64,000 nt of DNA, taken from positions 24,428,001 to 24,492,000 of the forward strand of contig NC_135808.1 of assembly GCF_964213995.1 (NCBI RefSeq). The letters are read 5' to 3'. This stretch comes from Mustelus asterias. Lineage: Eukaryota. The position numbers and the translations under genes were made by a program. How positions within the stretch are numbered: position 1 is the first letter of the stretch; every line of letters begins with the position of its first letter. Shown piece by piece: positions 10,901 to 40,010 of the stretch. Under the pieces are notes generated by a model that saw only the letters and a list, made by a program, of their open reading frames with translations, did not search any database and was not told the DNA's origin.

Positions 10901-12007
10901 TAAAAATAAAACTAGCAATGATACCAGTGGGCACATTTCTTTAAATTCATTGGGGCTGTACGAGACAGAATTTCTAGTTAGGCTGCAATTTGGATTCTCT
11001 GCATTTATGTTTTTGCTAGAATTACCAGCCAGAATAAATCTTTAGAGATGCATTAATGATGTCGTTACCTCTGATGATACAGACCAATTGTCCTTTCTAT
11101 AATTTCAGATGCTGACAGAGACTATGTGGGGAATCTTACCAGAAAACGGCAGTGTTCTTTCTGGCGAGAAAACGGGTTTTCTCGCCGGAAACATGCCAGT
11201 TTTCTCTCCACATCTTATAAAACTCTGTCAAAACAAATCAAGGTGGGGTGAAAGGGGCGGGGGTGGGGAGGGATGTGTGCGTCTCAGCACACCGGTAAAG
11301 CACTGAGATTGGGGCACCGTCTTAAAAGGACACCCCAATCATTGCAGGAAAATACCTTCCCCCCCCCAACTACAGTGGTTCACCACACAGTGCTAACCAT
11401 TGTGCCATCGTGCCGCCCATAACGGAATTTGTGTAAGGGTTTTTCTGAGACGAGCGCACATTTATTTAATTATTAATTCGGGTGTAATGAAGTCAGACAG
11501 TTTTGTCTGTGGGTTCAGTGAATGCACACGGCATAATGACTGTGTCTTTGAGTTGAAATGTGGCTTCCTGTTTCACACAGTTGGAAAGCACTCAAACTGC
11601 CTGTATGTGGCAGAGGACACAGCTGTGGGGGCTATTCAACTTTGCGAGCAAGGATGGAAAAGTAGAACACTTCTTTTAAAATGAGTCACTTGTATGCAGT
11701 CTACAAGGAACACAGAAACTCCTCCAGGTAGAATCATAGAGGGAGAATGTGCAAACTCCACATAGAGTCATGCAAACTCGGATTGGACCAGGGTCCCTGG
11801 TGCTGTGAGGCAGCAATGTGCCACCGTGCCACGCCTTTAAAGCTCAACCAGGAAAGCAAATGGTACTTTGGTCTTTATTGTAAAGGGATTACAGAACAGA
11901 ATAAATCAGCCTTGTGACAAATGTACACACCATTGTTAACACCACACCTGTAAATTGTGTAGAGTTGTTCTGGCAGATGTACAGAGAATGTTTACTTTAA
12001 ATGATTG

Positions 12008-15000
12008 TGATGCGCGTTATCACACACGAGGCTTGATGCTCAGGAAATAAAGGCTTTTATTTGCTGTAACAAGGCAGCTACTAATTATATACGCGATCCC
12101 AGACTGAGGGGTCCCAGACAGAGCAGAGACCTTTATACCTCTCCCAGGAGGCGGAGCCCAACTGGGATGTACCACAATAACTATAATACAAGGTGTAACA
12201 GCCCAACCCTAACCCCAACAGCAACAAGTAGAACAACCCATCCCTAACCCCAACAGCAACATATATACATACTTGTAGTACTGGCCAGATCCTGGCTCAG
12301 TACTATCTAGTGGGAACCAACGATGGTTCACTACATTCACCCCTCCTTTGAAGACAAAGGCCGGCGGGGTACAAAAAAACAGAATAATTTGTCATCAGTC
12401 TATAAGTTCAGATGGTCAGGGGGACCGCACTGTCGTTGCGACCTCCTCAATACCGGCGATGACACCGGAGTAGGCACTTGCAGTGGCGTTCTCCCCAAGG
12501 CGATGTCCAACTGTTCCTCCACAGACTCACGGGCCGGTTGACCCTGAGGTGATGGTAATCCATGGAGTTCCGACACGCCCTGAAGTGGCGACCATCCTCT
12601 GGACTCAGGCAAGCTGTACACGGGAGTAAAAGGGTTAAGTCATGGTCCTGATGCTGCCCGCGCCGTGTCCGGAGGGGAAACAAGAGTTATGGGGTTTAAA
12701 ACAGGGGGTATGGGAGCGACAGGGGTTTCCACGTCCCCTGCTGGCGCCAGGTCTCAGATCGAGACTGTGTCCTCTCGCCCGTCAGGGTATGCCACATAGG
12801 CATACTGAGGGTTGGCGTGGAGGAGATGGACCTGTTCGACCAACGGGTCGGACTTGCGGGCCCTTGCATGTCGCCGCAGGAGGACAGGTCCTGAGTACGT
12901 CAACCAAGACGGTAATGAGGTCCCAGAGGAAGACTTCCGAGGGAATGAAAACATCCTCTCATGGGGAGTAGCGTTGGTTGCCGTACACAGGAGTGAGCGT
13001 ATGGAATGGAGCGCATCAGGGAGCACCTCTTGCCAACGGGAGACTGGAAGGCTTTTTGACTTCAACGCCAGTAAGACAGCCTTCCAGACTGTAGCATTCT
13101 CACGTTCCACCTGTCCGTTACCCTAAGGGTTGTAGCTCGTGGTTCTACTAGAGGCAATCCCGTATGAGAGCAGGTATTGCCTCAAGTCATCGCTCATGAA
13201 CGACAAGCCCCTGTCGCTGTGAATGTAGCTGGGGTACCCGAACAGGGTAAAAAGATCATGGAATGCCTTGATAACCGTGGCTGCCGATGTATCCGAGCAG
13301 GGAATAACAAAAGGGAATCTAGAGTACTCGTCAATGATGTTGAGGAAGTACACATTCCGATCTGTTGAGGGAAGGGGGCCCTTAAAATCGACATTCAGTC
13401 TCTCGAAGGGACGAGTGGCCTTGACTAATTGTGCCCGGTCAGGTCGGTAAAAGTGCGGTTTGCATTCCGCGCATACCCGACAGCTTCTTGTTATGGACCT
13501 GACGTCCTCCACCGAGTAGGGCAGATTGCAGGCTTTTATAAAGTGGTAGAGCCGAGTGAGCCCAGGATGGCATAGGTCATTATGGAGAGCCTGCAAACGG
13601 TCCTCCTGTATACTGGCGCATGTTCCACGCGAGAGGGCATCCGAGGGCTCAGAGTTTCCCTGGATGATACATGATGTCATAGTTATAGGTGGAGAGTTCA
13701 ATTCTCCACCGCAAGATCTTGTCGTTCTTGATCTTGCCCCTCAGCGTGTTATTAAACATGAACGCCACGGACCGCTGGTCCGTGATCAGGGTGAACCGTT
13801 TTCCCGCCAAGTAATGGCACCAGTGCCTGACGGCCTCCACAATGGCCTGGGCCTCCTTTTCCACCGCTGAATGCCGAATTTCGGGGCCTTGGAGGGTGCG
13901 GGAAAAAAAGGCGACGGGCCTGCCCGCCTGGTTAAGTGTGGCGGCCAGGGCGAAATCAGATGCATCGCTCTCCACCTGAAAGGGGATGGACTCATCAACA
14001 GCGTGCATCGTAGCTTTCGCGATGTCGGCTTTTAATTTATCAAAGGCCTATCGGGCCTCTGGTGTTAGGGGAAAAGAAGTGGACGTAATGAGCGGACGAG
14101 CTTTGTCTGCGTAATTGGGAAGCCACTGTGCATAATAAGAGAAGAAGCCTAAGCATCTTCTCAGTGCTTTTGCACTAGTGGGCAGGGGAAGTTCAGAGAG
14201 GGGGCGCATACGGTCTGCCTCAGGGCCAATGACCCCGTTTTCCACCACGTATCTGAGGATGGCTAAACGGCGTGTACGAAACACACACTTCTCCCTGTTG
14301 TAGGTCAGGTTCAGGCGAGATGGAGTGCGTAGGAAATTCAGGAGATTTGTGTAGTGGTCCTGCTGGTCATGGCCGCAGATGGTGACGTTATCCAGGTACG
14401 GGAAGGTAGCCTGCAGCCCGTTCTGGTCCACCATTCGGTCCATAGCACGCTGGAAGACCGAGACCCCATTGGTGACACCAAAGGGAACCCTGAGAAAGTG
14501 ATACAAGCGACCAACCGCCTCAAAAGCCGTGTATTGTCGATCCTCTGGGCGAATGGGGAGTTGGTGGTAGGCAGACTTGAGGTCTATGGTGGAGAACACC
14601 CGGTACTGCGCAATCTGATTGACCATGTCAGATATGCGCGGGAGGGGATACGCATCCAGCTGCGTGTATCTATTAATGGTCTGACTATAGTCAATGACCA
14701 TCCGGGGTTTGTTCCCACTCTTGACCACCACGACCTGCACTCTCCACGGACTAGCGCTAGGTTGTATGATCCTTTCCCTGAGGAGCCACTGAACTTCAGA
14801 TCGAATGAAGATCCGATCCTCAGCGCTGTCACGCCTACTCTTAGTCGCAATGGGCTTGCAGCCTGGCACAAGATTCTGGAACAGGGAGGGTGTGGTGATC
14901 TTCAGCGTCGAGAGGCTACAGGCGGGGCGCGTTGGGCAATTTGGAGGCTGCTGTTCTCCCACTGAAAGCGAAGGGAGTGGCCCACTGTACTGTAGGGTTA

Positions 15001-16769
15001 CACTCCTCAGGTGGACCATGAAGTTTAGTCCGAGAAGTATTGGCGCGCAAAGGTGCGGCAACACCAGGAGCTTGAAACGCTCGTAAACTGTGCCTTGCAC
15101 CGTTAAAGTTACCACGCAACTCCCTAGCATGGTGACAGACCGGGACCTTGATGCCATAGAAATTGTCTGTTTGACAGGTTGAATCCGGAGTCCACACTGC
15201 TTCACAGCGTCTGGGTGGATAAAACTCTCAGTGCTCCCGCTGTCAAACAGACAATCAATCAAGTGGTCGTTTACCTGAATGTCCATCATAGACTTATCAA
15301 GTCTCTGAGGCTTGGCCTGGTCCAGGATGATCGATGCCACCGTTGGTTCATGAGCGCCACTGCAGGCAGCTGAAATCGACGAGGATGACCCCTGCTGGTC
15401 GTTCGCGGTCGGTGCCGACCAACATGGCCGCTCCCATAGGTCGCACGTGGGTGATGGCGCCAAACTCAGCGACCCCTGGTGGTCACACATCTCTGACTCC
15501 GTCGACGGTAATGGCGTCGTCCTGGCCTCGCACGTGGACGAAACCCTCGACGATGTCGACGACGAAGAACCGGGCTCTGAGGAATCGCAGGCCGCACTGC
15601 TGTTCCGAGAAGCAGATTTAGATCGGAACACTTTCGAATAGTGCCCCTTCTTACCGCAAGCGGAGCACAACACCGCTTTAGCAGGACACCGTTGCCGAGT
15701 ATGCTTCGCTCCCCCACAGAAGTAACACCGCGGGCCGACCGGAGCTGCTGCCATCGTCTGGCCCGAGTGTGAGCACGCTATTACGCAGCATTTCGAACCC
15801 GAGGGACGAGGAGGGATTGGCGACTGCTCCTGCCATGTTGTCTCCACGTGGTCTTCAGGATACAATACTAGGCTTTTGGAGGCCGTCTCCAGCATCTCCG
15901 CTAGTTCTATTGCCTGGGTGAGGTCAAGGTTACCTTTCTCCAGTAGTTTGAGTCGGATGTACGATGATCCGACTCCTGCCACAAACGCATCTCGAGCGAG
16001 GTCGTTCATATTCTGCTCTGCCGACACTGCTTTGCAGTTACAGCCCCTGGCTAGCTGTAGGAGCTCGTTCGCGTATTCCTCCATTGTTTCGCCGGACTGC
16101 CGTCGGCGAGTGGCTAAGAGGTAACGAGCGTGTATTTTGTTGGGCGGTTTAATATAACGCTTCTTAAGAAGCTCGAGGGCCTTTGTGTAGTCGGTGGCCG
16201 CACGGATCGCGAGGTAGACGGTGTCGCTTACCCTCGCATGGAGGACCCGGAGTCTGTCATCATCTGTGGTGACCGCTGCGGAGGCTGCCAGGTAGTCCTC
16301 AAAACATTTCAACCAGTGGTCGAAGGTGTTAGAGGCGCCCACCGCACGTGGATCTAGTGTAAGGCGTTCAGGCTTCAGTATCTGCTCCATACTCTCTTTT
16401 TTTTTTCTCTTCGACGAGAGTTTATTTACAGCAAATAAAATTGATGCACGTTATCACACACGAGGCTTGATGCTCAGGAAATAAAGGCTTTTATTTGCTG
16501 TAACAAGGCAGCTACTGATTACATACACGATCCCAGACTGAGGGGTCCCAGACAGAGCAGAGACCTTTATACCTCTCCCAGGAGGCGGAGCCCAACTGGG
16601 ATGTACCACAATAACTATAATACAAGGTGTAACAGCCCAACCCTAACCCCAACAGCAACAAGTAGAACAACCCATCCCTAACCCCAACAGCAACATATAT
16701 ACATACTGGTAGTACTGGCCAGACCCTGGCTCAGTACTATCTAGTGGGAACCAACGATGGTTCACCACA
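12008..16769 (-). mobile_element. Full-length Ty3/Gypsy LTR retrotransposon (Mag-like, two CCHC knuckles), inactivated
   Basis: 328-bp TG..CA LTRs at 12008-12335 and 16442-16769 (7 mismatches by eye), 5-bp TSD GATTG (12003-12007/16770-16774), PPT CAAAGGAGGGGTGAA next to the 3' LTR. Confidence 0.95.
12400..16390 (-). pseudogene. Gypsy gag-pol polyprotein (Gag, PR, RT, RNase H, IN), disrupted
   Basis: CYFCGGAKHTRQRC and CSACGKKGH, LFDSGS, PFGV/YLDN, ESDAS..EKEA..ITDQ, HNDLCH..CRVC, VDF..SDRG..VER; in-frame stops at 14048, 13123, 12754 and a frameshift near 13655. Confidence 0.92.
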
Positions 16770-17078
16770 GATTGGGATTTATTTTGTGAGGAAAACTTGA
16801 GTAGGTTGGGGATTTATTCATTGGAGTTTAGAACAATGAGAGATAATCTCACTGGAAAAGGTTTGATTCTGATAGGGTAGAGAGACTGGAAGATTCTTTC
16901 TGCTGCTTAGGAATAAAATATGAGGGCATAGCATCAGGTTAAGAGGTGAATCATTTAAGATGAGGAGAAATGTCTTCACTCAAAGGGTTGTGAACCTTTG
17001 ATTCTCTACCCCAGAGAATTGTGGATACTTCACTACTGAAGATAGACAGATTTGTGGGGTCTGAGGGAATGGAGGTCA

Positions 17079-20321: not shown

Positions 20322-22961
20322 AGTGAGGGTGGTGAGGTATTGGGGAAGGTATCAGGGTCAAGGGTGGGTACCGGTAGACAGGAAGGTGGGTTGAAGTGTG
20401 TCTACTTCAATGCAAGGAGCATCCGGAACAAGGTAGATGAACTTGGGGCATGGATTGGTACTTGGGACTACGATGTTGTGGCCATTACGGAGACGTGGGT
20501 AGAACAAGGACAGGAATGGTTGTTGGACGTTCCGGGGGATTGATGTTTCACTAAGTGTAGGGAAGCTGGTAAAAGAGGTGGAGGAGTGGCATTGTTAATC
20601 AAGGATAGTTTAACAGCTGCGGAAAGGCACTTCGAGGGGGATCTGCACACTGAGGTAATATGGGCTGAGGTTAGAAATAGGAAAGGAGCGGTCACGTTGT
20701 TAGGAGTTTACTATAGGCCCCCAAATAGTAATAGAGATGTGGAGGAAGAAATTGCTAAGCAGATTATGGATATGTGTAGGGGTCACAGGGTAGTTGTCAT
20801 GGGGGACTTTAACTTTCCAAATATTGATTGGAGCCTTTGTAGGTCAAATAGTTCGGATGGGGCAGTTTTTGTGCAGTGTGTGCAGGAGGGTTTCCTGACA
20901 CAATATGTGGATAGGCCGACAAGAGGTGAGGCCACATTGGATTTGGTACTGGGAAATGAACCGGGCCAAGTGTTAGATTTGGTTGTGGGAGAGCACTTAG
21001 GAGATAGTGACCACAATTCGGTGTCTTTTGTTATTGCAATGGAGAGGGATAGGGCCGTACGGCAGGGCAAGGTTTACAATTGGGGGAGAGGTAATTATGA
21101 TGCGATTAGGCAAGAATTAGGGGGCATAAGTTGGGAACAGAAACTGTCAGAGAAAGGAACTAATGAAAAGTGGAACTTTTTCAAGGAACAAATACTGGAT
21201 GTCCTTGATAGGTATGTCCCTGTCAGGCAGGGAGGAAATGGCCGAGTGAGGGAACCATGGTTCACGAAAGAGGTGGAATGTCTTGTGAAAAGGAAGAGGG
21301 AAGCTTATGTAGGGATGAGGAAACAAGGTTCAGATGGCTCGATTGAGGGTTACAAGTTAGCAAGGAATGAGCTGAAAAAGGGGCTTAGGAGAGCTAGGAG
21401 GGGACACAAGAAGTCCTTGGCGGGTCGGATCAAGGAAAACCCCAAGGCTTTTTACTCTTATGTGAGGAATAAAAGAATGACCAGGGTCAGGTTAGGGCCG
21501 GTCAAGGACAGTAGTGGGAACTTGTGTATGGAGTCAGTAGAGATAGGCGAGGTGATGAATGAATACTTTTCTTCAGTGTTCACCAAGGAGAGGGGCCATG
21601 TTTTTGAGGAAGAGAAGGTGTTGCAGGCTAATAGGCTGGAGGAAATAGATGTTCGGAGGGAGGATGTCCTGGCAGTTTTGAATAAACTGAAGGTCGATAA
21701 GTTCCCTGGGCCTGATGAAATGTATCCTAGGATTCTTTGGGAGGCAAGGGATGAGATTGCAGAGCCTTTGGCTTTGATCTTTGGGTCCTCGCTGTCCACG
21801 GGGATGGTGCCAGATGACTGGAGAATGGCGAATGTTGTTCCTCTGTTTAAGAAAGGGAATAGAAATGACCCTGGTAATCATAGCCCTGTTAGTCTTACTT
21901 CGGTGGTTGGTAAATTGATGGAAAAGGTCCTTAGAGATGGGATTTACGACCATTTAGAAAGATGCGGATGAATCCGGGATAGTCAGCACGGATTCGTGAA
22001 GGGCAAGTCGTGCCTCACAAATTTGATAGAATTTTTTGAGGAGGTAACTAGGTGTGTTGATGAAGGTAGGGCAGTTGATGTCATATACATGGATTTTAGT
22101 AAGGCGTTTGATAAGGTCCCCCATGGTCGGCTTATGATGAAATTGAGGAGGTGTGGGATAGAGGGAAAGTTGGCCAATTGGATAGGTAACTGGTGTAAGG
22201 GAAATTGTATTAGATATTGTATGAGCTAGGTATGAAATTCAGATTCACAGGTTTTAGTAAAATGATATAGCAGATTTAGGTGAGTAGTGAGATGGGTATA
22301 TAACCTAAAATAACTTCGTGTGACCTAATATAATCAAGTGTAGTCGATATGATCAAAGTGGAGAAACTAGAGAAGTAATATAGCAATCACTAATTAAGGA
22401 AAGCAAACGATAGCCACCTGAGAAAACAAAGAAGACTGCTCGGTGGTTCAACTTAATAGTGGACCATAAACCAGCAGAGAGAATGTCTTTTCTGCTAAAC
22501 ACATTAGTGGACCATAAATCAGCAGGGGGATGTCTTTTCTTCTAAACACATTCGCCTTAGCTTACAAAACCACGATTATTGTACAAACAGAAAAGTTCAG
22601 ATAAGAGCAAGAGTTATAACCACCATGGTTTAAGAAACGAAGAGATATAACAGGGAACGACCAAATGCAAAGAAAACAGATAAAGGGTCAACTAAAATTA
22701 ATGGTGGCCAAAGAAAGATAGGGCTGTAGGGTAAGATTACAACCAAGGACAGGCAGTAAAAGGGAGATAAGGATCTTGAGATAGGAGGCTGAAATGTACA
22801 TAAAAGAGTGTAAGCCCAAGGGCTCTTTGGAGTGTTCCGGACGCTCCCGGCTTTGTCTCTTGTGCTGAGAAATAAAGTCTATTGCTTGAAAGATCGCTGC
22901 TCAGACTCTCTGTTTTAAACCGATGTGAACGAATTGTCGTCCTGGGGAACCACGACAAAAT

Positions 22962-22980
22962 TGGCGCTGCTTAGCAGGGT
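22962..22980 (+). other. ERV primer-binding site, tRNA-Ser-like
   Basis: TGGCGCTGCTTAGCAGGGT, 4 nt after the LTR; resembles the complement of tRNA-Ser(CGA/TGA) 3' ends as recalled, with an indel. Confidence 0.55.
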
Positions 22981-24172
22981 TGGTGAGAGATCGCCCAGAA
23001 AAGCATCTGGAAGGAGTAGCGGAGACGGTGGTCCGACCGGAACCGAGAGGTCCCCAGCCGGCCTTCTGTCAACAAGGTAAGCAGACTTGCATGCATGTAA
23101 ATCCTTGTTGTCAGAAAGGGGTTTTCTCGAGGCCCGGTGCGCCCGGCTCTCTGCTGGTCCTGGATCTCCCCAACCCAAAAAGATATCCTGCACAGGTAAA
23201 ACCAAATTGTGTAAAAATTTTGAGAGACTGAGTCTGATCCGAAGAGCAGAATTTTTGCATGCAAAAGCGCGCTGCGAATACTGTATTGTCTGTGAATGGG
23301 TAAAAAGTGAGACGGGAAAAAGGCCGAAAGCTAAAGTAATGCAATTAGGTTAAGTCAAGCGGTTTGGAGCGGGTTTTTCAGGTCACGACTTGCCCAGAAG
23401 AGAGTAAGTGTGGGAAAATCTGCCAGTCCAAACCTACCCAGGACCTCGGGTAAGGGACGTCAACCGAGAGGGAGAGAGATCAGTGAGAGATCACTCTCTG
23501 ACCTAATACAGTAGTCAAAAGCACAGGAGTGGATTTTAAGCACAGGAAAGGGGAGTAGCAGCTAGAATAGAGGAAGTAAAAGACCAATTTGAACAAACTG
23601 GTCTGAGGTAACAGCGTGGAGAACAGAAATAAGAGGAGAGTCGGAACATAGGTAGGGTAATAACTAACAACTTGGAAAGATTACCCTGACAAAACTGCCT
23701 GGTGACAAGATTGAAAATAACTAATCTTTGAATAATAACAAAAACGGAAGCAACACTGGATTGGAAAAAGATTACACACATAATTAACTTAGAGGAGATA
23801 AAGAATGAGTGGCCGTATGTAAAATGGGAAAGAGTAGTCAATAGGAATTGGATAGACGAAATAAAATTGGAAACCCTAGAGAAATTAATAAAGGGATCTG
23901 ACCGATACAGGATTCTTATACACATAGACGAGCAAGTGAAAACCTACTACCCTCTGGCCCGGGAGAGGAAGATAGTGCCGGGACAGGGGACTACGGGGAA
24001 GTGGATATCAGGACCCCGGTTAGAATTACAGATATTGGCAAAAGAAATCCAAAGGAAAGGTAAACAGGGGACTGAGCACGGAAAAACAATACAGCAAGTA
24101 ATAATCACTGTGATACCTAACTCTGACGGACTAAGTGACAAAAATTGCGACAGTGATCCAAAAAGACGAGTA

Positions 24173-25400
24173 ATGGCGCACCAAGTTAAGACACCAGTGG
24201 AGATATTAGGGGATAAGTTCCCAGCCCTTAGGGGAGATATAGAACACGTCTCTAAAAAATGGGCCAAAAGAACAAATAAGACCAATACACAGTGGCCGGA
24301 GGAAGGCACATGGTCCATAGAGAGGTGTGAGGACCAGAAGGGAATGATAAAGAACTATAAGATTAAGGATAAATCGAGCAAAAGAAGGGAGAAGCGAGAA
24401 AAGGAGTTAGAGATATTAGCCCTATTCCAACAAGAAGGGAAAGAGAGAAGAGGGGTATGGAGGGGAGGTAGAATGCAGATGCCAGTACAACTTGAGGAAA
24501 AAGCAAAATTGGAAGATCCAAACGTAGCCCCATCCCCATACTTAGAGAAACAGAGCTCCACGGGACTGTACCCAGTTATATCAGGCAAAATGAATTTTGA
24601 GGGAGAATATGACATAGAACAGATGACGAAGGTGGAGAAGGGACACGGAGAGGGACATTTTAATAGACCCACTGACCAACTCCATGTTCCGGGCTGCAAT
24701 CCTAGAGGGCTTGCCAGCCCCAGCTAAGACAAGGCTGGAGGAAGTGGTGGGCTTGGACTCAAAAAATTACCGAGAGTTTGTGGATTATGTTGCCCATGCA
24801 GTAGAGAGACATCGCAAAGATGAAAAGAATGCAGACAAACAGCTGAAGGAGGTACAACGTAAACTCCTTCAGGCACAGTTGGAGGAGATCAAAAGCAAGG
24901 ATAAGCTAAAGGCAAAAGAGGATCTCGCACCCAGAAAAATAGCACCGATGATGGTGGAGCAAAAGCCAGAGGAAATACCTGCACTAATCAAAGGGGGGAG
25001 CGGAGATGGAGGCCAGCCCGTCATAACCTATAACATTTCTGCCTTCCCACTGTCCATGAACCCAGGAGCCTATGGCCTAAATTATCAAAACCCATACGCC
25101 CTGCAAAGTCAGACTGACTGGAATAGAAATGGGAAAGGACAGGGAGGTGGTAGGTCACCCTATCAGAATCAGAGAGGACAGGGACAGGTTAATCATCAGA
25201 CTCCGAGACAGGGACCACTGCCTGGCCCTTCAGGTGTGTGTTGGGGGTGCGGGGAGGCAGGGCACATAAAAAGGAATTGCCCGCGGAATTTCCCCAGACA
25301 GGGAGAAAACCAGCAGCAGACAGGCCAACAACTGATCCAAGGATCGCCAAACAGCATCCCGATGTTTCAAGGGCCGGTAAACCATCAGAATTCCCCATAG
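24173..25400 (+). pseudogene. gag: ERV gag with internal deletion and frameshift (~24630)
   Basis: MA-like WPEEGTW and late-domain-like PSPY/LYPVI in one frame; CA C-terminus, coiled coil and single CWGCGEAGHIKRNC knuckle in another frame, ending TAG. Confidence 0.85.
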
Positions 25401-28400
25401 GGAGGCCCAGAGAACCCCGAAATGGTAGGACAGTACGTACAGATAACAGAAACTGCAGAGCAGGAACCTATAGTTAACGTTAGAGTAGGAGGGATCGAGG
25501 TCCCCATGATGATAGACACCGGCGCCACATGTACGTGCATGCAAACGAAATATGCGGATCACTTACCATTGTCAAACCAGTTTGTAAAAACTGTGGGGTT
25601 CTCGGGGAAAGTAACATTAGCTCGAATGACGACGCCGGTGCCTGTTACCATTGGAAATAAGACAACCCATGTACCTATTTTAGTATGTGATAAAACTCCT
25701 TTAAATCTATTGGGAAGGGATGCAATCCTAGGTTTAGGACTGAAATTAGAATGCACTGAACAAGGAATTGATTTGATGGGAATGTATCCACTTGAAATAC
25801 CAGGAAAGGAAGGGGTTAATGTATATTGGTTGGGAGATATAGAGGAACAAGTTAAAAAACAGATATGGGAAGTTTGGGGAAAGCTTATAAACACTTGGGT
25901 TCCACAAGCCAAATGGCCAAGAACAGAATTACACAGTACAATGATATTTGATGAAGGACAGGAACCTGAGATACAGGAGAAATGGGAAAGGGAGGCAGGA
26001 CGAGAACAGGAAATAAAGTCAGGAAGTATTTTAATCGGACTAGAGGGAGTAGCCCTCACCATTGTTAGGAATGAATGGGTTAACAAATGGTTCTCTGTAT
26101 CTGGGGCGGAGCCACATGTCACATTGAAAGTGAATCCGGAATACAGATCAAAAGACCTAGGACCAATGGTGTTGAGAGCACAAGATTTAGAATTTGTCCA
26201 GACAGACAATGTAGATATTTGGACGTCCAGCAATGGACAAATGACGAAAATAATTTTGGATGTTAAAATGCTTGGGAAACCGAAGCAGATAACAATAGGA
26301 GTGCAAATCGAGAAACAGGAACTGGAGTGGAGAGAGAGGTTAGAGCAGGATTTGAACTCCCTCCCGCAGGAGTTGTGGTCCAGACAGGACACGGATGTAG
26401 GGAGGGTCAAAAACGCTAATCCAGTTGAAGTCAGATTAAAGATAGGACGTCAGGGGCCGTATAGGCCGCAATACCCAATCAAGACAGAAGCAATTGAAGG
26501 AATTAGAGGGACAATTAAGGGATTGATAGAAGCAGGGGTATTAAAAGAAACCCGGAGCAGGTGTAATACACCGCTACTACCAGTGAAAAAGGCGGACGGA
26601 GAAAAATGGAGATTGGTGCATGACCTAAGGGCGATTAATGAGGTAGTGGAAGATATGCCAGTAGAAGTCCCAAACCCTTATACCTTGTTAACAAATATAC
26701 CACCTGAAAGCAGATGGTTTACTGTAATAGACTTATGTTCGGCATTTTTTAGTGTGCCACTAGCTCAAGAAAGTCAGTATCTCTTTGCATTTACATTCGA
26801 GGGGAAACAATACACATACAATAGGATGCCCCAAGGATTTAAACATTCCCCACATGTATTCAATCAGGTGTTGAGAGCAGATTTAGAAGGAATACAGTTG
26901 GAAGGAACACTGATACAATATGTGGATGATTTATTATTATGCACAGGAACACAAGAACAGTGCAGGAAGGATAGTTTAAAACTATTGGAAAGACTAGCAG
27001 AAGGGGGCCATAAAGTTTCCAGGAAAAAGCTGCAGCTGTGCCAGAAAAAGGTAGAATACTTGGGAAGAGAAATATCAGCAGGACAGAAGGAGATAGCTTC
27101 ACAGCAAATAGAAGCAGTACTAAAAGTTCCGAAACCACAGACGGTGGGACAAATGATGACATTTTTGGGAATGACAGGATTCAGTTCAGAATGGGTGGAA
27201 AGCTATGCCGAAAAAACGCAGGCATTACGAAAGATAATGAAGGAGGCAGGGTGTGACGAATTAAAAGCCAAACTAAAATGGGATAAAGATGCTTCAGACG
27301 CATTTGAAAACGTGAAAAGAGAAATGGCACAGGCACCAGCCTTGGCTTTACCGACCTATGACAAGCCCTTTGACTTATTTGTGAGTAACAGAGAAGCCGG
27401 ATTTGCTACAGCAATGTTAATGCAGGAAAATTGCAAGGGTAGACGAAGGCAGGCTGTAGCATATTACAGTACCAAGCTAGACGACGTAGCAATGGGATAC
27501 CCTCCGTGCTATCAAGGCCTGGCAGCAGCTTGGTGGGCGTACGAAAAGGCAGCCACGGTCACAATTGGATATCCGATAAACATACATGTATACCATAAGG
27601 TAGCTGAATTGATTGAGCAAGGAAAATTTGTGCTGACACCTGCTAGGATCCATCATTATCGAATGCTAACCACATTTCCAGATATCACGATTATAAAGTG
27701 CAACAGAGTAAATCCAGCTGATTACATGCCATTACCTCATGAAGGAGAAGAACATGAATGCTTAAGAGAAGCAAAAACATTTATGAAACTGAGAAAAGAT
27801 TTAAGAGCAGAGGGACTAGTGACAGAAGGGAAAAGGATACTGTATGTAGATGGCTCATGTTACAGGGATCACTTAGGAAACCACGCAGGCTATGCCATAG
27901 TTGAACAGAAAGGGGAAACACTTGAAGTCATAGAAGCAGAGAAATGTGAACAGCCCTGTTCAGCCCAACTGGCAGAACTTAAAGCATTGACCAGAGCATG
28001 TGAGCTAGCAAACGGGGAAGCATTGGAAATTTATACTGATTCGGCCTATGCCCACGGGGTCTGCCATCTGTTCGGGGCAATATGGAAGCAAAGGGGATTT
28101 ATGAAAAGCGGAGGAGGACCAATACAACACGAAGGTCAAATCAGGGCTTTAATAAGGGCCATGATGGGTCCAAGGGAATTAGCCATAATTAAGTGTCAGG
28201 CGCATAAAAAGGGAGCAGACAGCATCACACAGGGAAACACCAAAGCCGACAAGGCAGCTAAAGAAGCGTCAGGATGCATTGAGGCTACGATAGCCCCAGT
28301 AGAAATAGCAAGGCCACACCCAGGGCCAGGTACGGGGGATATCGAACCTCAGATCACATTAGAGGATGTAGCACAGTTACAGGAGGAAACCTCTGTAGCT

Positions 28401-29774
28401 GAAAAGGCAATGTGGAAAGATAGAGGAGCACTACAGGGACAACAGGACAGGATATGGAGAAATGGGGAGGGATTAGTCATAGCACCCACATCATTACTAA
28501 CCGTACTAATTAGCGAAGCGCATGGAGTGGACCACTGTGCAAGAGGAGAAGTGGCTAGAAAGATCAAGAAGGAAGGATTCTGGTCACCATACCTGCAAAA
28601 CTCGATTGACTACATACTAAGTCAGTGTGAGGTGTGTGCTCAGAATAACATCAGGAAGGGCATTACTGCCCCAATAGGGCATATACCCATTCCTGAAGGA
28701 CCATTTAAACATCTATGCATGGACTATGTGGATATGGGAAAGGTGGTGAGGGGGAAAAGATACATGTTAGTGATTATTGATAGATTCAGCAGATGGATAG
28801 AAGCAACGCCATCCAAAGATCAAGGATCTGGAACGGTGATTAACTTCCTGTCAAAAGAAATTATCCCAAGATTTGGCATACCCACGCAATTAAGTTCAGA
28901 CAATGGATCTGCTTTTATAGGAAGGGCACTGAGAGAGACACTCTCGGCACTCCGAATAAAGCAGAAGTTTGGATGCGTATATCACCCTCAATCCCAAGGA
29001 ATGGTGGAGAGAGCAAACGGGACCCTTAAGGCTAAAATAAGCAAAATTTGCAGTGAAACAGGGAAAAACTGGATAGATGCTCTGCCATTGGCTCTAATGC
29101 AATACAGGAGTCAGGAAAACAGAATCACACATTTGAGCCCACATGAAATGATGACAGGAAGAGTAATGCCGGTACCTAAGATCAGGGGATCAGGAGGTCC
29201 TACGCTAGAATGTTTAGATCAAAGCACAAAAGAATATATACAACAATTAACTGTTATACATAGAACTATATTTGAACAGGAAAAAGCCAAGGAGGAGGAG
29301 AATCCGGTAACAGAACATCAGATCAAGCCTGGAGATCGAGTATACATCAGGAAGTTCCGCAGACGTTGGAATGAACCGAGACGAGAAGGACCGTTTGAAG
29401 TCACCAAAGTGTCTCCCACGGCGTTGCAAGTAGAAGGCAGTACACTGTGGTATCACTTGAACCATTGTACCAGAACGGTACCAGGGGTGGGGGAGAGAAG
29501 GGAAATTGAAGAAGTACACAGAGTGGACAGAAGTGATAGCGAGGAAGAAATAGAAATACACGGGGAGAATCGTGGGGAGGAGGAACAGAGCCAAGGAAGA
29601 ACAAAAAGAATAGAGGATGATGAAAGTAGTTCTGTACATGAGCTGGCTGATGATACAAATGCCCAGCCTGAGCATATTAGTCAAGGTGCCGAGGGAGGTG
29701 AGGACAGGGAAGGGGCCCCATTCCCCACCTGGGACTTGGAAAATATTTCCCTTAGGGACTTCCGTGACCCATAG
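25401..29774 (+). CDS. pol: ERV Pol (protease, 2H-like domain, RT, RNase H, integrase), uninterrupted
   Basis: IDTGA; MPQGFKHSP; YVDD; VDGS/AELKA/YTDS/ADKAA; HGVDH..CEVC; MDY/SDNG/MVER; in frame with gag after the amber codon. Confidence 0.97.
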   Translation, partial: GGPENPEMVGQYVQITETAEQEPIVNVRVGGIEVPMMIDTGATCTCMQTKYADHLPLSNQFVKTVGFSGKVTLARMTTPVPVTIGNKTTHVPILVCDKTPLNLLGRDAILGLGLKLECTEQGIDLMGMYPLEIPGKEGVNVYWLGDIEEQVKKQIWEVWGKLINTWVPQAKWPRTELHSTMIFDEGQEPEIQEKWEREAGREQEIKSGSILIGLEGVALTIVRNEWVNKWFSVSGAEPHVTLKVNPEYRSKDLGPMVLRAQDLEFVQTDNVDIWTSSNGQMTKIILDVKMLGKPKQITIGVQIEKQELEWRERLEQDLNSLPQELWSRQDTDVGRVKNANPVEVRLKIGRQGPYRPQYPIKTEAIEGIRGTIKGLIEAGVLKETRSRCNTPLLPVKKADGEKWRLVHDLRAINEVVEDMPVEVPNPYTLLTNIPPESRWFTVIDLCSAFFSVPLAQESQYLFAFTFEGKQYTYNRMPQGFKHSPHVFNQVLRADLEGIQLEGTLIQYVDDLLLCTGTQEQCRKDSLKLLERLAEGGHKVSRKKLQLCQKKVEYLGREISAGQKEIASQQIEAVLKVPKPQTVGQMMTFLGMTGFSSEWVESYAEKTQALRKIMKEAGCDELKAKLKWDKDASDAFENVKREMAQAPALALPTYDKPFDLFVSNREAGFATAMLMQENCKGRRRQAVAYYSTKLDDVAMGYPPCYQGLAAAWWAYEKAATVTIGYPINIHVYHKVAELIEQGKFVLTPARIHHYRMLTTFPDITIIKCNRVNPADYMPLPHEGEEHECLREAKTFMKLRKDLRAEGLVTEGKRILYVDGSCYRDHLGNHAGYAIVEQKGETLEVIEAEKCEQPCSAQLAELKALTRACELANGEALEIYTDSAYAHGVCHLFGAIWKQRGFMKSGGGPIQHEGQIRALIRAMMGPRELAIIKCQAHKKGADSITQGNTKADKAAKEASGCIEATIAPVEIARPHPGPGTGDIEPQITLEDVAQLQEETSVAEKAMWKDRGALQGQQDRIWRNGEGLVIAPTSLLTVLISEAHGVDHCARGEVARKIKKEGFWSPYLQNSIDYILSQCEVCAQNNIRKGITAPIGHIPIPEGPFKHLCMDYVDMGKVVRGKRYMLVIIDRFSRWIEATPSKDQGSGTVINFLSKEIIPRFGIPTQLSSDNGSAFIGRALRETLSALRIKQKFGCVYHPQSQGMVERANGTLKAKISKICSETGKNWIDALPLALMQYRSQENRITHLSPHEMMTGRVMPVPKIRGSGGPTLECLDQSTKEYIQQLTVIHRTIFEQEKAKEEENPVTEHQIKPGDRVYIRKFRRRWNEPRREGPFEVTKVSPTALQVEGSTLWYHLNHCTRTVPGVGERREIEEVHRVDRSDSEEEIEIHGENRGEEEQSQGRTKRIEDDESSSVHELADDTNAQPEHISQGAEGGEDREGAPFPTWDLENISLRDFRDP

Positions 29775-30412
29775 AAAAGGAGAATGGGATACAGAAGACA
29801 TAAGGGTGCAGAATCAGGAAGATAGAGTATTAAGACGAACAAAACGTGAACGATTAGTGAGCACAAATACTATTTGGGGAAAAGCGCAGAAAAACAAATG
29901 GTGGAAATGGGCTGAGTATACAGGTCAGAAAAACAGTGATGGGAAAGAGTGTGTAGTATGCGCATCAGAGAAACCTAACACCCAAGTAACTGATATACCA
30001 TGGGGATCAGTGCTGCACATTTATCCCTAATAACACTAATCCAGAAGGGTCATTTACACAAGCCATGAATAAGTTAAAAAATCTTAAGAAAGAAGTGAAA
30101 GAAAATGCTGGGTTTGGGCATGAGGTATGGAGTTGGCTGGACAGAATATTAGGAAGATGGGGGGCGTGGTTTGCCAAAGCTGGAGCTGTAGCAATCGCAA
30201 CAATAATCATTCTGGGATTGATATTTTGTTGTTTTTGACCCGCCCTGAGATCCTTCCTTACCAGAGTGGCAGCGCGGCAGATGGTGACGCGGGTGCTAAG
30301 CAGCTCACGCTCGAGAGAAAAAACAGAGGAATGGGAAAATCTTGAGCCGCCCCCGCTGAGTGGATTCACAATGACCTTGGTCGAAGTTGAAACTCGTCAC
30401 TCTGTAAAATAA
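29617..30412 (+). pseudogene. env: ERV env with large internal deletion
   Basis: N-terminus with RRTKR and NKWWKWAEY..CVVC, fused out of frame at ~30001 to the TM C-terminus GDQCCTFIPNNT...membrane helix; extra stop at 30236. Confidence 0.85.
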
Positions 30413-32739
30413 CTACAATAGTGGAAGATCACCTTGTGGAAACAACAGCACCTTGCTGAAGTCCGCACGAAACCAGGAGAACTTAGTCTGTACACAGGAA
30501 TCAGTCTTTTTCCCTTCCCTAGACAAGAGTGGGAAGGTTTTTGGCTGATGACTGTCAGGGGCAGGCAATCTGGAGGAGCAACCCAAAAATCAGAACCGGG
30601 ATAGACAAATTATGATAAAGTTAGAATAGGGACACTGATCCCTGACCAAAATAGTCGGCTCCTCCACATCGCCTGGGAAAAGTGATTAAAATAAAATACA
30701 AATGGGATTGAGCGAGGGGATTATTTGAGCTTGGTAATTGGGATGAGGCTAGGGAAGCCTCAAAGGGGGGATTGTAAGGGAAATTGTATTAGATATTGTA
30801 TGAGCTAGGTATGAAATTCAGATTCACAGGTTTTAGTAAAATGATATAGCAGATTTAGGTGAGTAGTGAGATGGGTATATAACCTAAAATAACTTCGTGT
30901 GACCTAATATAATCAAGTGTAGTCGATATGATCAAAGTGGAGAAACTAGAGAAGTAATATAGCAATCACTAATTAAGGAAAGCAAACGATAGCCACCTGA
31001 GAAAACAAAGAAGACTGCTCGGTGGTTCAACTTAATAGTGGACCATAAACCAGCAGAGAGAATGTCTTTTCTGCTAAACACATTAGTGGACCATAAATCA
31101 GCAGGGGGATGTCTTTTCTTCTAAACACATTCGCCTTAGCTTACAAAACCACGATTATTGTACAAACAGAAAAGTTCAGATAAGAGCAAGAGTTATAACC
31201 ACCATGGTTTAAGAAACGAAGAGATATAACAGGGAACGACCAAATGCAAAGAAAACAGATAAAGGGTCAACTAAAATTAATGGTGGCCAAAGAAAGATAG
31301 GGCTGTAGGGTAAGATTACAACCAAGGACAGGCAGTAAAAGGGAGATAAGGATCTTGAGATAGGAGGCTGAAATGTACATAAAAGAGTGTAAGCCCAAGG
31401 GCTCTTTGGAGTGTTCCGGACGCTCCCGGCTTTGTCTCTTGTGCTGAGAAATAAAGTCTATTGCTTGAAAGATCGCTGCTCAGACTCTCTGTTTTAAACC
31501 GATGTGAACGAATTGTCGTCCTGGGGAACCACGACACTGGCTGTCTGATCGAAGACAGAGGGTGGTGGTCGATGGAAAATGTTCGGATTGGAGGCAGGTT
31601 GCTAGCAGAGTGCCGCAGGGATCAGTGCTTGGTCCTCTGCTCTTTGTGAATTTTATTAATGACTTCGAGGAGGGGGCTGAAGGGTGGATCAGTAAATTTG
31701 CTGATGACACCAAGATTGGTGGAGTAGTGGATGAGGTGGAGGGCTGTTGTAGGCTGCAAAGAGACATAGATAGGATGCAAAGCTGGGCTGAAAAATGGCA
31801 AATGGAGTTTAACCCTGATAAATGTGAGGTGATTCATTTTGGTAGGACTAATTTAAATGTGGATTACAGGGTCAAAGGTAGGGTTCTGAAGACTGTGGAG
31901 GAACAGAGAGATCTTGGGGTTCATATCCAAAGATCTCTCAAGGTTGCCACTCAAGTGGATAGAGCTGTGAAGAAGGCCTATAGTGTGTTAGCTTTTCTTA
32001 ACAGGGGGTTGGAGTTTAAGAGCCGTGGGGTTATGCTGCAACTGTACAGGACCTTGGTGAGACCACATTTGGAATATTGTGTGCAGTTCTGGTCACCTCA
32101 CGATAAGAAGGATGTGGAAGCGCTGGAAAGAGTGCAGAGGAGATTTACCAGGATGCTGCCTGGTTTGGAGTGTCGGTCTTATGAGGAAAGGTTGAGGGAG
32201 CTAGGGCTGTTCTCTCTGGAGCAGAGGAGGCTGAGGGGAGACTTAATAGAGGTTTATAAAATGATGAAGGGGAGATAGAGTGAACGTTCAAAGACTATTT
32301 CCTCGGGTGGATGGAGCTATTACAAGCGGGCATAACTATAGGGTTCGTGGTGGGAGATACAGGAAGGATATCAGAGGTAGGTTCTTTACGCAGAGAGTGG
32401 TTGGGGTGTGGAATGGACTGCCTGCAGTGATAGTGGAGTCAGACACTTTAGAAACATTTCAGCGGTTATTGGATAGGCACATGGAGCACACCAGGATGAT
32501 AGGGAGTGGGATAGCTTGATCTTGGTTTCAGATAAAGCTCGGCACAACATCGTGGGCCAAAGGGCCTGTTCTGTGCTGTACTGTTCTATGTTCTAAGTCT
32601 CCAACTGATCTATATCCTGCTGTATCCTCTGATGGTCCTCATCACTGTCCGCAAACTTACTAATCAATCCAGTTATATTTTCCTCCAAATCATTGTTTGT
32701 AATATAGATATATAAATAAATGTTAATTTCAATGTAGAT

Positions 32740-37974: not shown

Positions 37975-40010
37975 TCCTGTAAAAAAGGAAAGATAGGAAA
38001 GGTAGGATTCGAGAGCCATGGATAACCAGGGAAATTGAGGATCTGATTAAAATGAAAAGGGAGGCGTACGTTAAGTCCAGGCAACTGAAAACAGATGGAG
38101 CTCTGGAGGAAGACAGAGAGAGTAGGAAAGATCTCAAACAGGGAGTTAGAAGGGCAAAAAGAGGTCACGAGATGTTCTTGGCAGGCAGGATTAAGGAGAA
38201 TCCTAAGGCATTCTATTCATACGTTAGGAACAAAAGAGTTGTCAGGGAGAAAATCGGACCTCTCAGGGACAAAGGAGGGGAATTATGCTTAGAACCCAAG
38301 GGAATAGGGGAGATCCTAAATGAATACTTTGCATCGGTATTCACGAAGGAGAGGGGCGTGTTAACCGGGAGTGTCTCGGAGGGAGGTGTTGACCCGTTAG
38401 AGAAAATCTCCATTACAAGAGAGGAAGTGTTAGGTTTTTTAGGGAACATTAAAACTGACAAAGCCCCAGGGCTGATGGCATCTATCCTCGACTGCTCAGG
38501 GAGACGAGAGGTGAAATTGCTGGGCCTCTGACGGAAATCTTTGTCGCTTCTTTGGACACGGGTGAGGTCCCTGAGGATTGGAGGATAGCGAATGTGGTCC
38601 CGTTGTTTAAGAAGGGTAGCAGGGATAACCCAGGAAATTATAGGCCGGTGAGCTTGACGTCCGTGGTAGGGAAGTTGTTGGAGAGGATTCTTAGAGACAG
38701 GATGTATGTGCATTTAGAACGGAACAATCTCATTAGTGACAGACAGCATGGTTTTGTAAGGGGGAGGTCGTGCCTTACAAATTTGGTGGAGTTTTTTGAG
38801 GAAGTGACAAAAACGGTTGATGAAGGAAGGGCCGTGGATGTCGTCTATATGGATTTCAGTAAGGCATTTGACAAAGTCCCACATGGCAGGTTGGTTAAGA
38901 AGGTTAAGGCTCATGGGATACAAGGAGAAGTGGCTAGATGGGTGGAGAACTGGCTTGGCCATAGGAGACAGAGGGTAGTGGTCGAAGGGTCTTTTTCCGG
39001 CTGGAGGTCTATAACCAGTGGTGTTCCGCAGGGCTCTGTACTGGGACCTCTGCTATTTGTGATATATATAAATGATTTGGAAGAAGGTGTAACTGGTGTA
39101 ATCAGCAAGTTTGCGGATGACACGAAGATGGCTGGAATTGCGGATAGCGAAGAGCATTGTCGGGCAATACAGCAGGATATAGATAGGCTGGAAAATTGGG
39201 CGGAGAGGTGGCAGATGGAATTTAATCCGGATAAATGCGAAGTGATGCATTTTGGAAGAAATAATGTAGGGAGGAGTTATACAATAAATGGCAGAGTCAT
39301 CAGGAGTATAGAAACACAGAGGGACCTAGGTGTGCAAGTCCACAAATCCTTGAAGGTGGCAACACAGGTGGAGAAGGTGGTGAAGAAGGCATATGGTATG
39401 CTTGCCTTTATAGGACGGGGTATAGAGTATAAAAGCTGGAGTCTGATGATGCAGCTGTATAGAACGCTGGTTAGGCCACATTTGGAGTACTGCGTCCAGT
39501 TCTGGTCGCCGCACTACCAGAAGGACGTGGAGGCATTGGAGAGAGTGCAGAGAAGGTTTACCAGGATGTTGCCTGGTATGGAGGGTCTTAGCTATGAGGA
39601 GAGATTGGGTAGACTGGGGTTGTTCTCCTTGGAAAGACGGAGAATGAGGGGAGATCTAATAGAGGTATACAAGATTATGAAGGGTATAGATAGGGTGAAC
39701 AGTGAGAAGCTTTTTCCCAGGTCGGAGGTGACAATCACGAGGGGTCACGGGCTCAAGCTGAGAGGGGCGAAGTATAACTCAGACATCAGAGGGACGTTTT
39801 TTACACAGAGGGTGGTGGGGGCCTGGAATGCGCTGCCAAGTAGGGTGGTGGAGGCAGGCACGCTGACATCGTTTAAGACTTACCTGGATAGTCACATGAG
39901 CAGCCTGGGAATGGAGGGATACAAACGATTGGTCTAGTTGGACCAAGGAGCGGCACAGGCTTGGAGGGCCGAAGGGCCTGTTTCCTGTGCTGTACTGTTC
40001 TTTGTTCTTT
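37975..40010 (+). mobile_element. 5'-truncated CR1/HER1 LINE with open RT domain (38552-39937)
   Basis: NYRPVSLTS, QHGF, DFSKAFD, GVPQGSVLGP, FADD; frameshift near 38474; (gttcttt)n tail. Confidence 0.95.

Follow-up and report, generated by a model that had tools for sequence, protein, structure and literature searches.

A widespread clade of animal Gypsy retrotransposons without a chromodomain likely primes minus-strand DNA synthesis with a segment of its own long terminal repeat (LTR) rather than with a tRNA. From the sequence comparisons described here, we put the probability of this reading at roughly 0.8. The self-complementary primer site itself is real and clade-wide. The new parts would be an internal primer, an overlap between primer and poly(A) signal, and probably a separate origin of the trait. 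To our knowledge, the only element in which self-priming has been demonstrated so far is a yeast one with a different design, and animal LTR elements other than those of the sushi group are generally taken to be primed by tRNA. In the literature searched, as far as its text was accessible, there is no account of self-priming in an animal Gypsy clade that lies outside the chromoviruses (the search did not extend to Repbase, GyDB or subscription journals).

The element and its primer site

The window, a 64,000-nt stretch of the Mustelus asterias genome, contains a Gypsy LTR retrotransposon of 4,762 bp on the minus strand. It is a decayed copy with the following parts:

16770..16774, minus strand: CAATC target site duplication, upstream copy (5 bp)
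16442..16769, minus strand: 5' LTR, 328 bp, TG...CA, aligned to the 3' LTR
16489..16503, minus strand: candidate self-primer segment in the 5' LTR, exact complement of the primer site, with AATAAA at 16495-16490
16441..16488, minus strand: 48-nt loop, with the conserved GCC first, then the rest of R, U5 and the 1-nt spacer
16426..16440, minus strand: primer binding site position, self-complementary, without TGG
12400..16390, minus strand: single gag-pro-RT-RNase H-integrase frame, from translation and Pfam
12336..12349, minus strand: polypurine tract, adjoining the 3' LTR
12008..12335, minus strand: 3' LTR, 328 bp, aligned to the 5' LTR
12055..12069, minus strand: the primer segment again, here in the 3' LTR, with its poly(A) signal
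12003..12007, minus strand: CAATC target site duplication, downstream copy (5 bp)

The LTRs differ at 7 of 328 positions and have TG...CA ends; with the target duplication, the polypurine tract and the PR-RT-RH-IN order, they place the element in Ty3/Gypsy. Pfam recognizes RVT_1, an aspartyl protease, rve and Integrase_H2C2, and the Ty3 reverse transcriptase (RT) is the best solved relative (E 8e-38). The frame is interrupted by several stop codons and a frameshift. An earlier note on this DNA had described two CCHC knuckles in Gag: the first is complete (CX2CX4HX4C), but the second lacks its last Cys in this copy. The RT active site reads YLDN (14398-14387, minus strand). Among 39 RT rows from the clade, YLDN or YMDN stands in place of YxDD in 27, many with long open frames, while six have YLDD and another six fit neither pattern; a literature search for "YLDN" with "retrotransposon" returned nothing relevant.

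The central claim of the earlier note was that the primer site complements the element's own LTR over 15 nt, and the window copy bears this out. The minus strand at 16440-16426 reads TTTTATTTGCTGTAA, the exact reverse complement of 16503-16489, with no extension on either side. The site occupies bases +2 to +16, leaving one base (A, 16441) as a spacer after the LTR, and the loop has the claimed length of 48 nt. The first TGG past the LTR lies at 16389, inside the start of gag, and the paired segment, which ends in AATAAAA, includes the AATAAA signal, as the note had said. Within the window, the segment occurs in the two LTRs only and the primer site occurs once. As a control for chance, the LTR end was dinucleotide-shuffled 300 times, and the 12/12 match appeared 0 times. 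With priming from this position, the loop would be copied into strong-stop DNA.

In the family of the window element, both LTRs also have the potential for a short local hairpin (16497-16480 on the minus strand in the 5' copy) between the poly(A) signal and a TTTATTT just downstream, and this hairpin would compete with the main helix. Elsewhere in the window, LINE-type fragments with an endonuclease frame and a reverse transcriptase frame lie at 20544-21971 and 38459-39937, both on the plus strand.

Pairing across the clade

Relatives were sampled from the same genome and from other sources. A DNA search of the M. asterias genome gave 3,611 candidates, of which 40 were scored and 30 fetched. 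These near-identical copies retain pairing at 15/15 positions in 20 cases, and one is changed in the LTR. The other nine have one mismatch in the primer site and were considered as a replicating variant, but all share a single flank and therefore represent one duplicated insertion. They lie on small unplaced contigs (L011-L015, L017-L019, L029) with a common flank and a shortened LTR, as expected for one insertion multiplied inside a larger repeat.

For the clade as a whole, 80 loci in metagenomes, 7 in bacterial genome bins and 20 regions of the own genome supplied the DNA context. A flanking repeat pair was found in 31 of the 87 outside loci. Eighteen of these were used, and 13 were excluded as duplicates (2), for a cut-off 3' LTR (4), a deleted LTR end (1) or overlap with a contig end (4), or as an opposite-strand element (1) or a microsatellite (1). 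Sixteen of the 20 own-genome regions were used. LTR ends were assigned by LTR-LTR homology and the CA end, with three set manually (L035, and L057 and L112 from sister copies).

Scored as the better of the two LTR copies, 27 of 35 elements, including the window copy, pair with their own LTR at 13/13 positions and six at 12/13, with one each at 10 and 9. The pairing starts at +2, after a 1-nt spacer, in 35/35; loops span 35-58 nt and the complementarity is 13-18 nt long. There are 28 distinct primer sites among these elements, and TGG is absent from the first 8 nt of all 28, extending what the earlier note had seen in one copy. In a 12-base test, 32 of 35 elements exceed all 300 shuffles; the misses are two decayed copies and one element with a mis-set end. 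By contrast, TGG-type controls from the same genome (7 endogenous retroviruses and 4 Gypsy elements; n=11) each score 7/12, a value equalled by 177-271 of 300 shuffles and hence at chance. Sushi-type positive controls were sought in the same genome, where the 20 SH3_Tf2-1 loci are too decayed for usable LTR pairs.

Loci that had been dropped or scored as unpaired were scanned again. Three of these 23 are without upstream DNA, 13 pair at 12-13/13, two at 11 and five at ≤10; the last group, five of 20 scorable loci, falls inside the range of the internal controls (maxima 9-11). Among 29 more own-genome loci, which partly overlap the earlier regions, the LTR end is recognizable in 22, and 20 of these pair at 12-13/13.

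By protein homology, from proteins alone and not LTRs, the lineage occurs in sharks, rays, hagfish, a tunicate, a sea cucumber, an anemone, crustaceans, insects and trichinellid nematodes, and the nearest named proteins are from sharks and rays. Scans of viral contigs gave no relatives. Clade members were also seen in contigs of bacterial genome bins (L111-L117), several complete with both LTRs; the presence of animal-type LTR elements there suggests contamination of those bins with host DNA. A young endogenous retrovirus at 22194-31536 (plus strand) has two identical 764-bp LTRs, a TGG-type primer site and a pol frame of 1,457 codons with a gamma-type integrase end. In an abundant young family of endogenous retroviruses from the same genome (L178-L183, L188, L189), the primer-site TGG is set off from the end of the LTR by four T bases.

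Covariation of the primer site and the LTR segment

Related elements, in which the earlier note had proposed a test for compensatory changes, do conserve the pairing through many two-sided changes across families. At positions 7-13, beyond the A-rich hexamer, each site pairs with its own LTR at a mean of 6.6/7 positions, versus 3.4 for cross-family combinations. The observed sum was reached in 0 of 20,000 permutations, a test in which related families are not independent. An RT tree of 20 fully paired elements requires at least 48 two-sided changes, and RNAalifold, applied to 13 same-genome elements, returns 14 pairs, nine of them with two-sided changes.

Close relatives show how quickly the two sides change together. 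Nine close pairs, which were hand-picked and use one element twice, give 117 positions with 13 two-sided (11%) versus 4 one-sided changes. Single changes next to the primer segment occur at 54/580 positions upstream (9%) and 27/430 in the loop (6%), such that two-sided changes in these pairs are about as frequent as neighboring single changes. In an extreme case, L200 and L209 differ at one of 255 RT residues yet have four fully compensated primer positions. Two independent hits should be far rarer than one, so these frequencies point to templated re-copying, and we infer that a site re-copied from its primer in each cycle would produce just such compensation in close pairs. Another process that might keep the two sides matched is conversion between inverted repeats.

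The predicted leader: promoter, poly(A) signal and folding

Promoter elements predicted in the 5' LTR put the segment inside the RNA:

16566..16571, minus strand: predicted promoter TATA box (TATAAA), from same-genome conservation
16536..16541, minus strand: initiator-like TCAGTC, predicted transcription start at A 16539, from the spacing of the Inr-like A

The TATA box lies 82-106 nt ahead of the primer 3' end in 13/13 same-genome elements. In 11 of these 13, an Inr-like A follows 31-33 nt past the TATA, placing the predicted start 50-64 nt ahead of the primer 3' end. The predicted start lies upstream of 16489 rather than downstream, as the scheme in the earlier note would need. From the position of the TATA box and initiator, the primer is predicted to be internal, ~35-50 nt into the RNA, unlike that of Tf1. 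Another TATA-like stretch, located 22 nt ahead of the primer, was rejected as the promoter since just 2 of 23 elements have it. The invertebrate-type LTRs showed no TATA.

AATAAA or ATTAAA falls within the segment in 25 of the 28 distinct sites, and the same helix would then mask the poly(A) signal at the 5' end but keep the one at the 3' end accessible. Three sites have GTTAAA in place of AWTAAA, so poly(A) masking would not be universal. GCC or ACC follows the segment directly in 24 of 28 sites, and this conserved ...TAAA/RCC junction may mark the predicted cut position.

Folding predictions depend on the length of leader included. The helix probability is near 1 when at least 240 nt of predicted leader are folded; in a 160-nt fold, a competing structure wins and the helix probability is 0.24 (z -1.44). 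The alignment fold has the main helix only, with no consensus for an extra stem like that of the three-duplex "pretzel" structure of Tf1. In single-sequence folds, the GCC after the primer is often paired and loop z-scores are weak (-2.4 to +1.6). A search of the M. asterias genome for polyadenylated LTR retrocopies found 0, which does not imply their absence. Four sequencing runs consisting of contigs, two presumed to be RNA and two unlabelled, revealed no start, end or poly(A) position.

How would priming work?

In the proposed mechanism, the RNA would begin at the TATA/initiator, ~50 nt before the LTR segment reaches its 3' end, and the segment would fold back onto the primer site. A cut just past the last paired A, probably made by the element's RNase H by analogy with Tf1, would free a 3' end for RT to extend across the 35-58-nt loop. 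The short DNA product would then transfer to the 3' end of the RNA, relying on no more than the ~15-25 nt that separate the cut from the poly(A) site. Finally, plus-strand synthesis would copy the primer, meaning that the primer site would be rewritten from the LTR segment in each cycle. A difficulty for this scheme is that the ~36 unpaired bases on the 5' side of an internal primer, if not trimmed, would give plus-strand strong-stop DNA a tail with no match. As the donor of the primer, we favor the 5' LTR copy over the 3' copy by about 2 to 1. The complete picture, with an independent origin, an internal LTR segment that doubles as the poly(A) signal, a helix that both masks the signal and sets the cut, a cycle that rewrites the site and possibly an RNA 3' end that acts as primer, is put forward tentatively, at somewhat less than even odds.

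The segment is present in both LTR copies, and the primer might instead come from the 3' one. R at the 3' end of the RNA would pair with the primer site, the short tail and poly(A) would be cut off after the hexamer, and RT would extend the 3' end of the genome itself. Strand transfer could then draw on the whole 5' R (~50 nt), which avoids the very short transfer region, and the covariation data fit this scheme equally well. The predicted internal position of the primer also removes the reason to prefer the 5' copy. Nevertheless, the 5' copy sits just 35-58 nt from the site and is expected to pair first, Tf1 uses its 5' end, and the accessible parts of the literature searched hold no precedent for a 3' donor; we regard this route as unlikely, though worth keeping in view. 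A very improbable reading dispenses with self-priming altogether: the helix would serve for anti-termination alone, by masking the poly(A) signal of the 5' LTR, with a tRNA fragment or another host RNA as the primer. The frequency of the hexamer within the segment fits this idea, as does the fact that the masking sequence adjoins the 5' copy only. It is harder to reconcile with the three sites that lack a canonical hexamer, with a partner that always begins at +2, the register required of a primer 3' end, and with two-sided changes that accumulate about as fast as single ones. Moreover, 28 different sites cannot match one host RNA. In the comparison with host tRNAs that the earlier note had proposed, no primer-site match exceeds 10 nt in 44 predicted tRNAs of few isotypes, and the 10-nt match lies in a spurious 966-nt call. 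The same set contains no convincing match to an internal tRNA fragment, as half-tRNA priming would involve, and the family-specific covariation argues against that route.

Self-priming by the element's own LTR would also be expected if the clade were a chromodomain-less offshoot of the Tf1/sushi chromoviruses that had inherited the trait, with no independent origin. We consider this quite unlikely. The elements form one clade on a long stem (SH-aLRT 99-100), and three trees make it sister to Gypsy elements with a TGGCGACGAG primer site (SH-aLRT 90, 95 and 98), one of the reported trees being a quick version and not a mixture-model one. The best trees keep the clade apart from chromodomain-bearing proteins and put it beside, not within, one TGGCGACGAG-site family. 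As the earlier note had suspected for the window element, there is no evident chromodomain: neither Chromo nor SH3_Tf2-1 was found in any of the six clade proteins scanned, and no chromodomain is listed among 120 homologues. The two-knuckle Gag and the predicted internal primer also speak against an offshoot. On the other hand, several alternative groupings survive the AU tests: with chromodomain-bearing elements the p value is 0.14 for RT and 0.48 for RT-RH-IN, with SH3_Tf2-bearing elements 0.46 and with two amphibian elements 0.24. The join between the clade and the Mag-type group was flagged as one of long branches with each other, and the chromovirus proxies in the trees are unnamed chromodomain proteins, with no named Tf1/sushi or Mag reference. 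The earlier note's proposal of tRNA-independent priming is supported, as a deduction from nucleotide patterns, for a lineage without a chromodomain, in which the pairing is conserved and TGG is missing. For the lineage being a different one the support is partial, as the AU tests leave room for a chromovirus link.

What are the nearest relatives? A TGGCGACGAG primer site presumably marks Mag-type elements, and if that label is right, the Mag group is the sister in the best trees. The description of the element as "Mag-like" fits this placement only partly, given that the clade is a long-stemmed group of its own with about 30% RT identity to the TGGCGACGAG-site elements, and that the AU tests leave the chromodomain grouping standing. 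The TGGCGACGAG-site elements further differ in having a TGG tRNA-type site and no LTR complementarity. "Selgy" was discarded as a clade name since it denotes a plant clade. A motif search of the readable supplements of a mollusc paper found nothing, and the ESM Atlas returned solely unnamed arthropod Gag clusters.

Comparison with known systems

The Tf1/sushi chromoviruses, including Tf1/Tf2 of Schizosaccharomyces pombe, Tj1, Tosmo and Tcry1, resemble the clade in that they have no tRNA site and the primer site past the 5' LTR complements the LTR in a priming-compatible orientation, according to the accessible parts of the sources (PMC7175516, PMC10085805, PMC4600332, PMC5341516). In Tf1, the first 11 bases pair with the primer site, and the RNase H cleavage falls between bases 11 and 12, as stated in the available text (PMC7175516). 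The analogy with Tf1 drawn in the earlier note holds for the complementarity and the missing tRNA site, and is inexact for the primer, for which an internal position is predicted in place of the very start of the RNA. Unlike Tf1/sushi elements, the clade described here has a 13-18-nt segment, predicted to begin well inside the RNA and usually containing a poly(A) hexamer, a short loop of only 35-58 nt, and an integrase without a chromodomain.

Self-priming has been predicted from sequence by the same test for plant Tcn1 (Gypsy) and TAR, Houba and Osr-1 (Copia), using at least 10 nt complementary to the LTR, 0-5 nt past the LTR; TAR indicates that the trait can arise outside chromoviruses (PMC6317226, in the text available). 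These elements differ in their plant hosts and lineages, and the accessible text mentions no overlap with a poly(A) signal (PMC6317226). Mag-group elements (A, B and C clades, MolGy3/11), as described in the parts available, are likewise metazoan, compact and without a chromodomain (PMC6238403). Saci2/lennie of tapeworms share the single Gag-Pol frame and a primer site that varies between families; Saci2 was rejected as the identity of the clade, given 4-bp target duplications versus 5-bp here, and in the accessible text tRNA primers are assigned to these elements, in contrast to the LTR complementarity of the clade (PMC12471100).

Implications

What would self-priming in this clade mean? It would be a further origin of the mechanism, in a lineage that, by protein homology, extends across sharks, rays, hagfish, tunicates, echinoderms, cnidarians, arthropods and nematodes. 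Its geometry would be new, with an internal primer, a poly(A)-signal overlap and a very short transfer region. Sharing of one helix between 5' poly(A) suppression and priming would provide a natural test of how the two functions coexist. Annotation tools that require a tRNA match would miss or mis-annotate such elements. Finally, control by tRNA fragments directed at the primer site would presumably not act on these elements.
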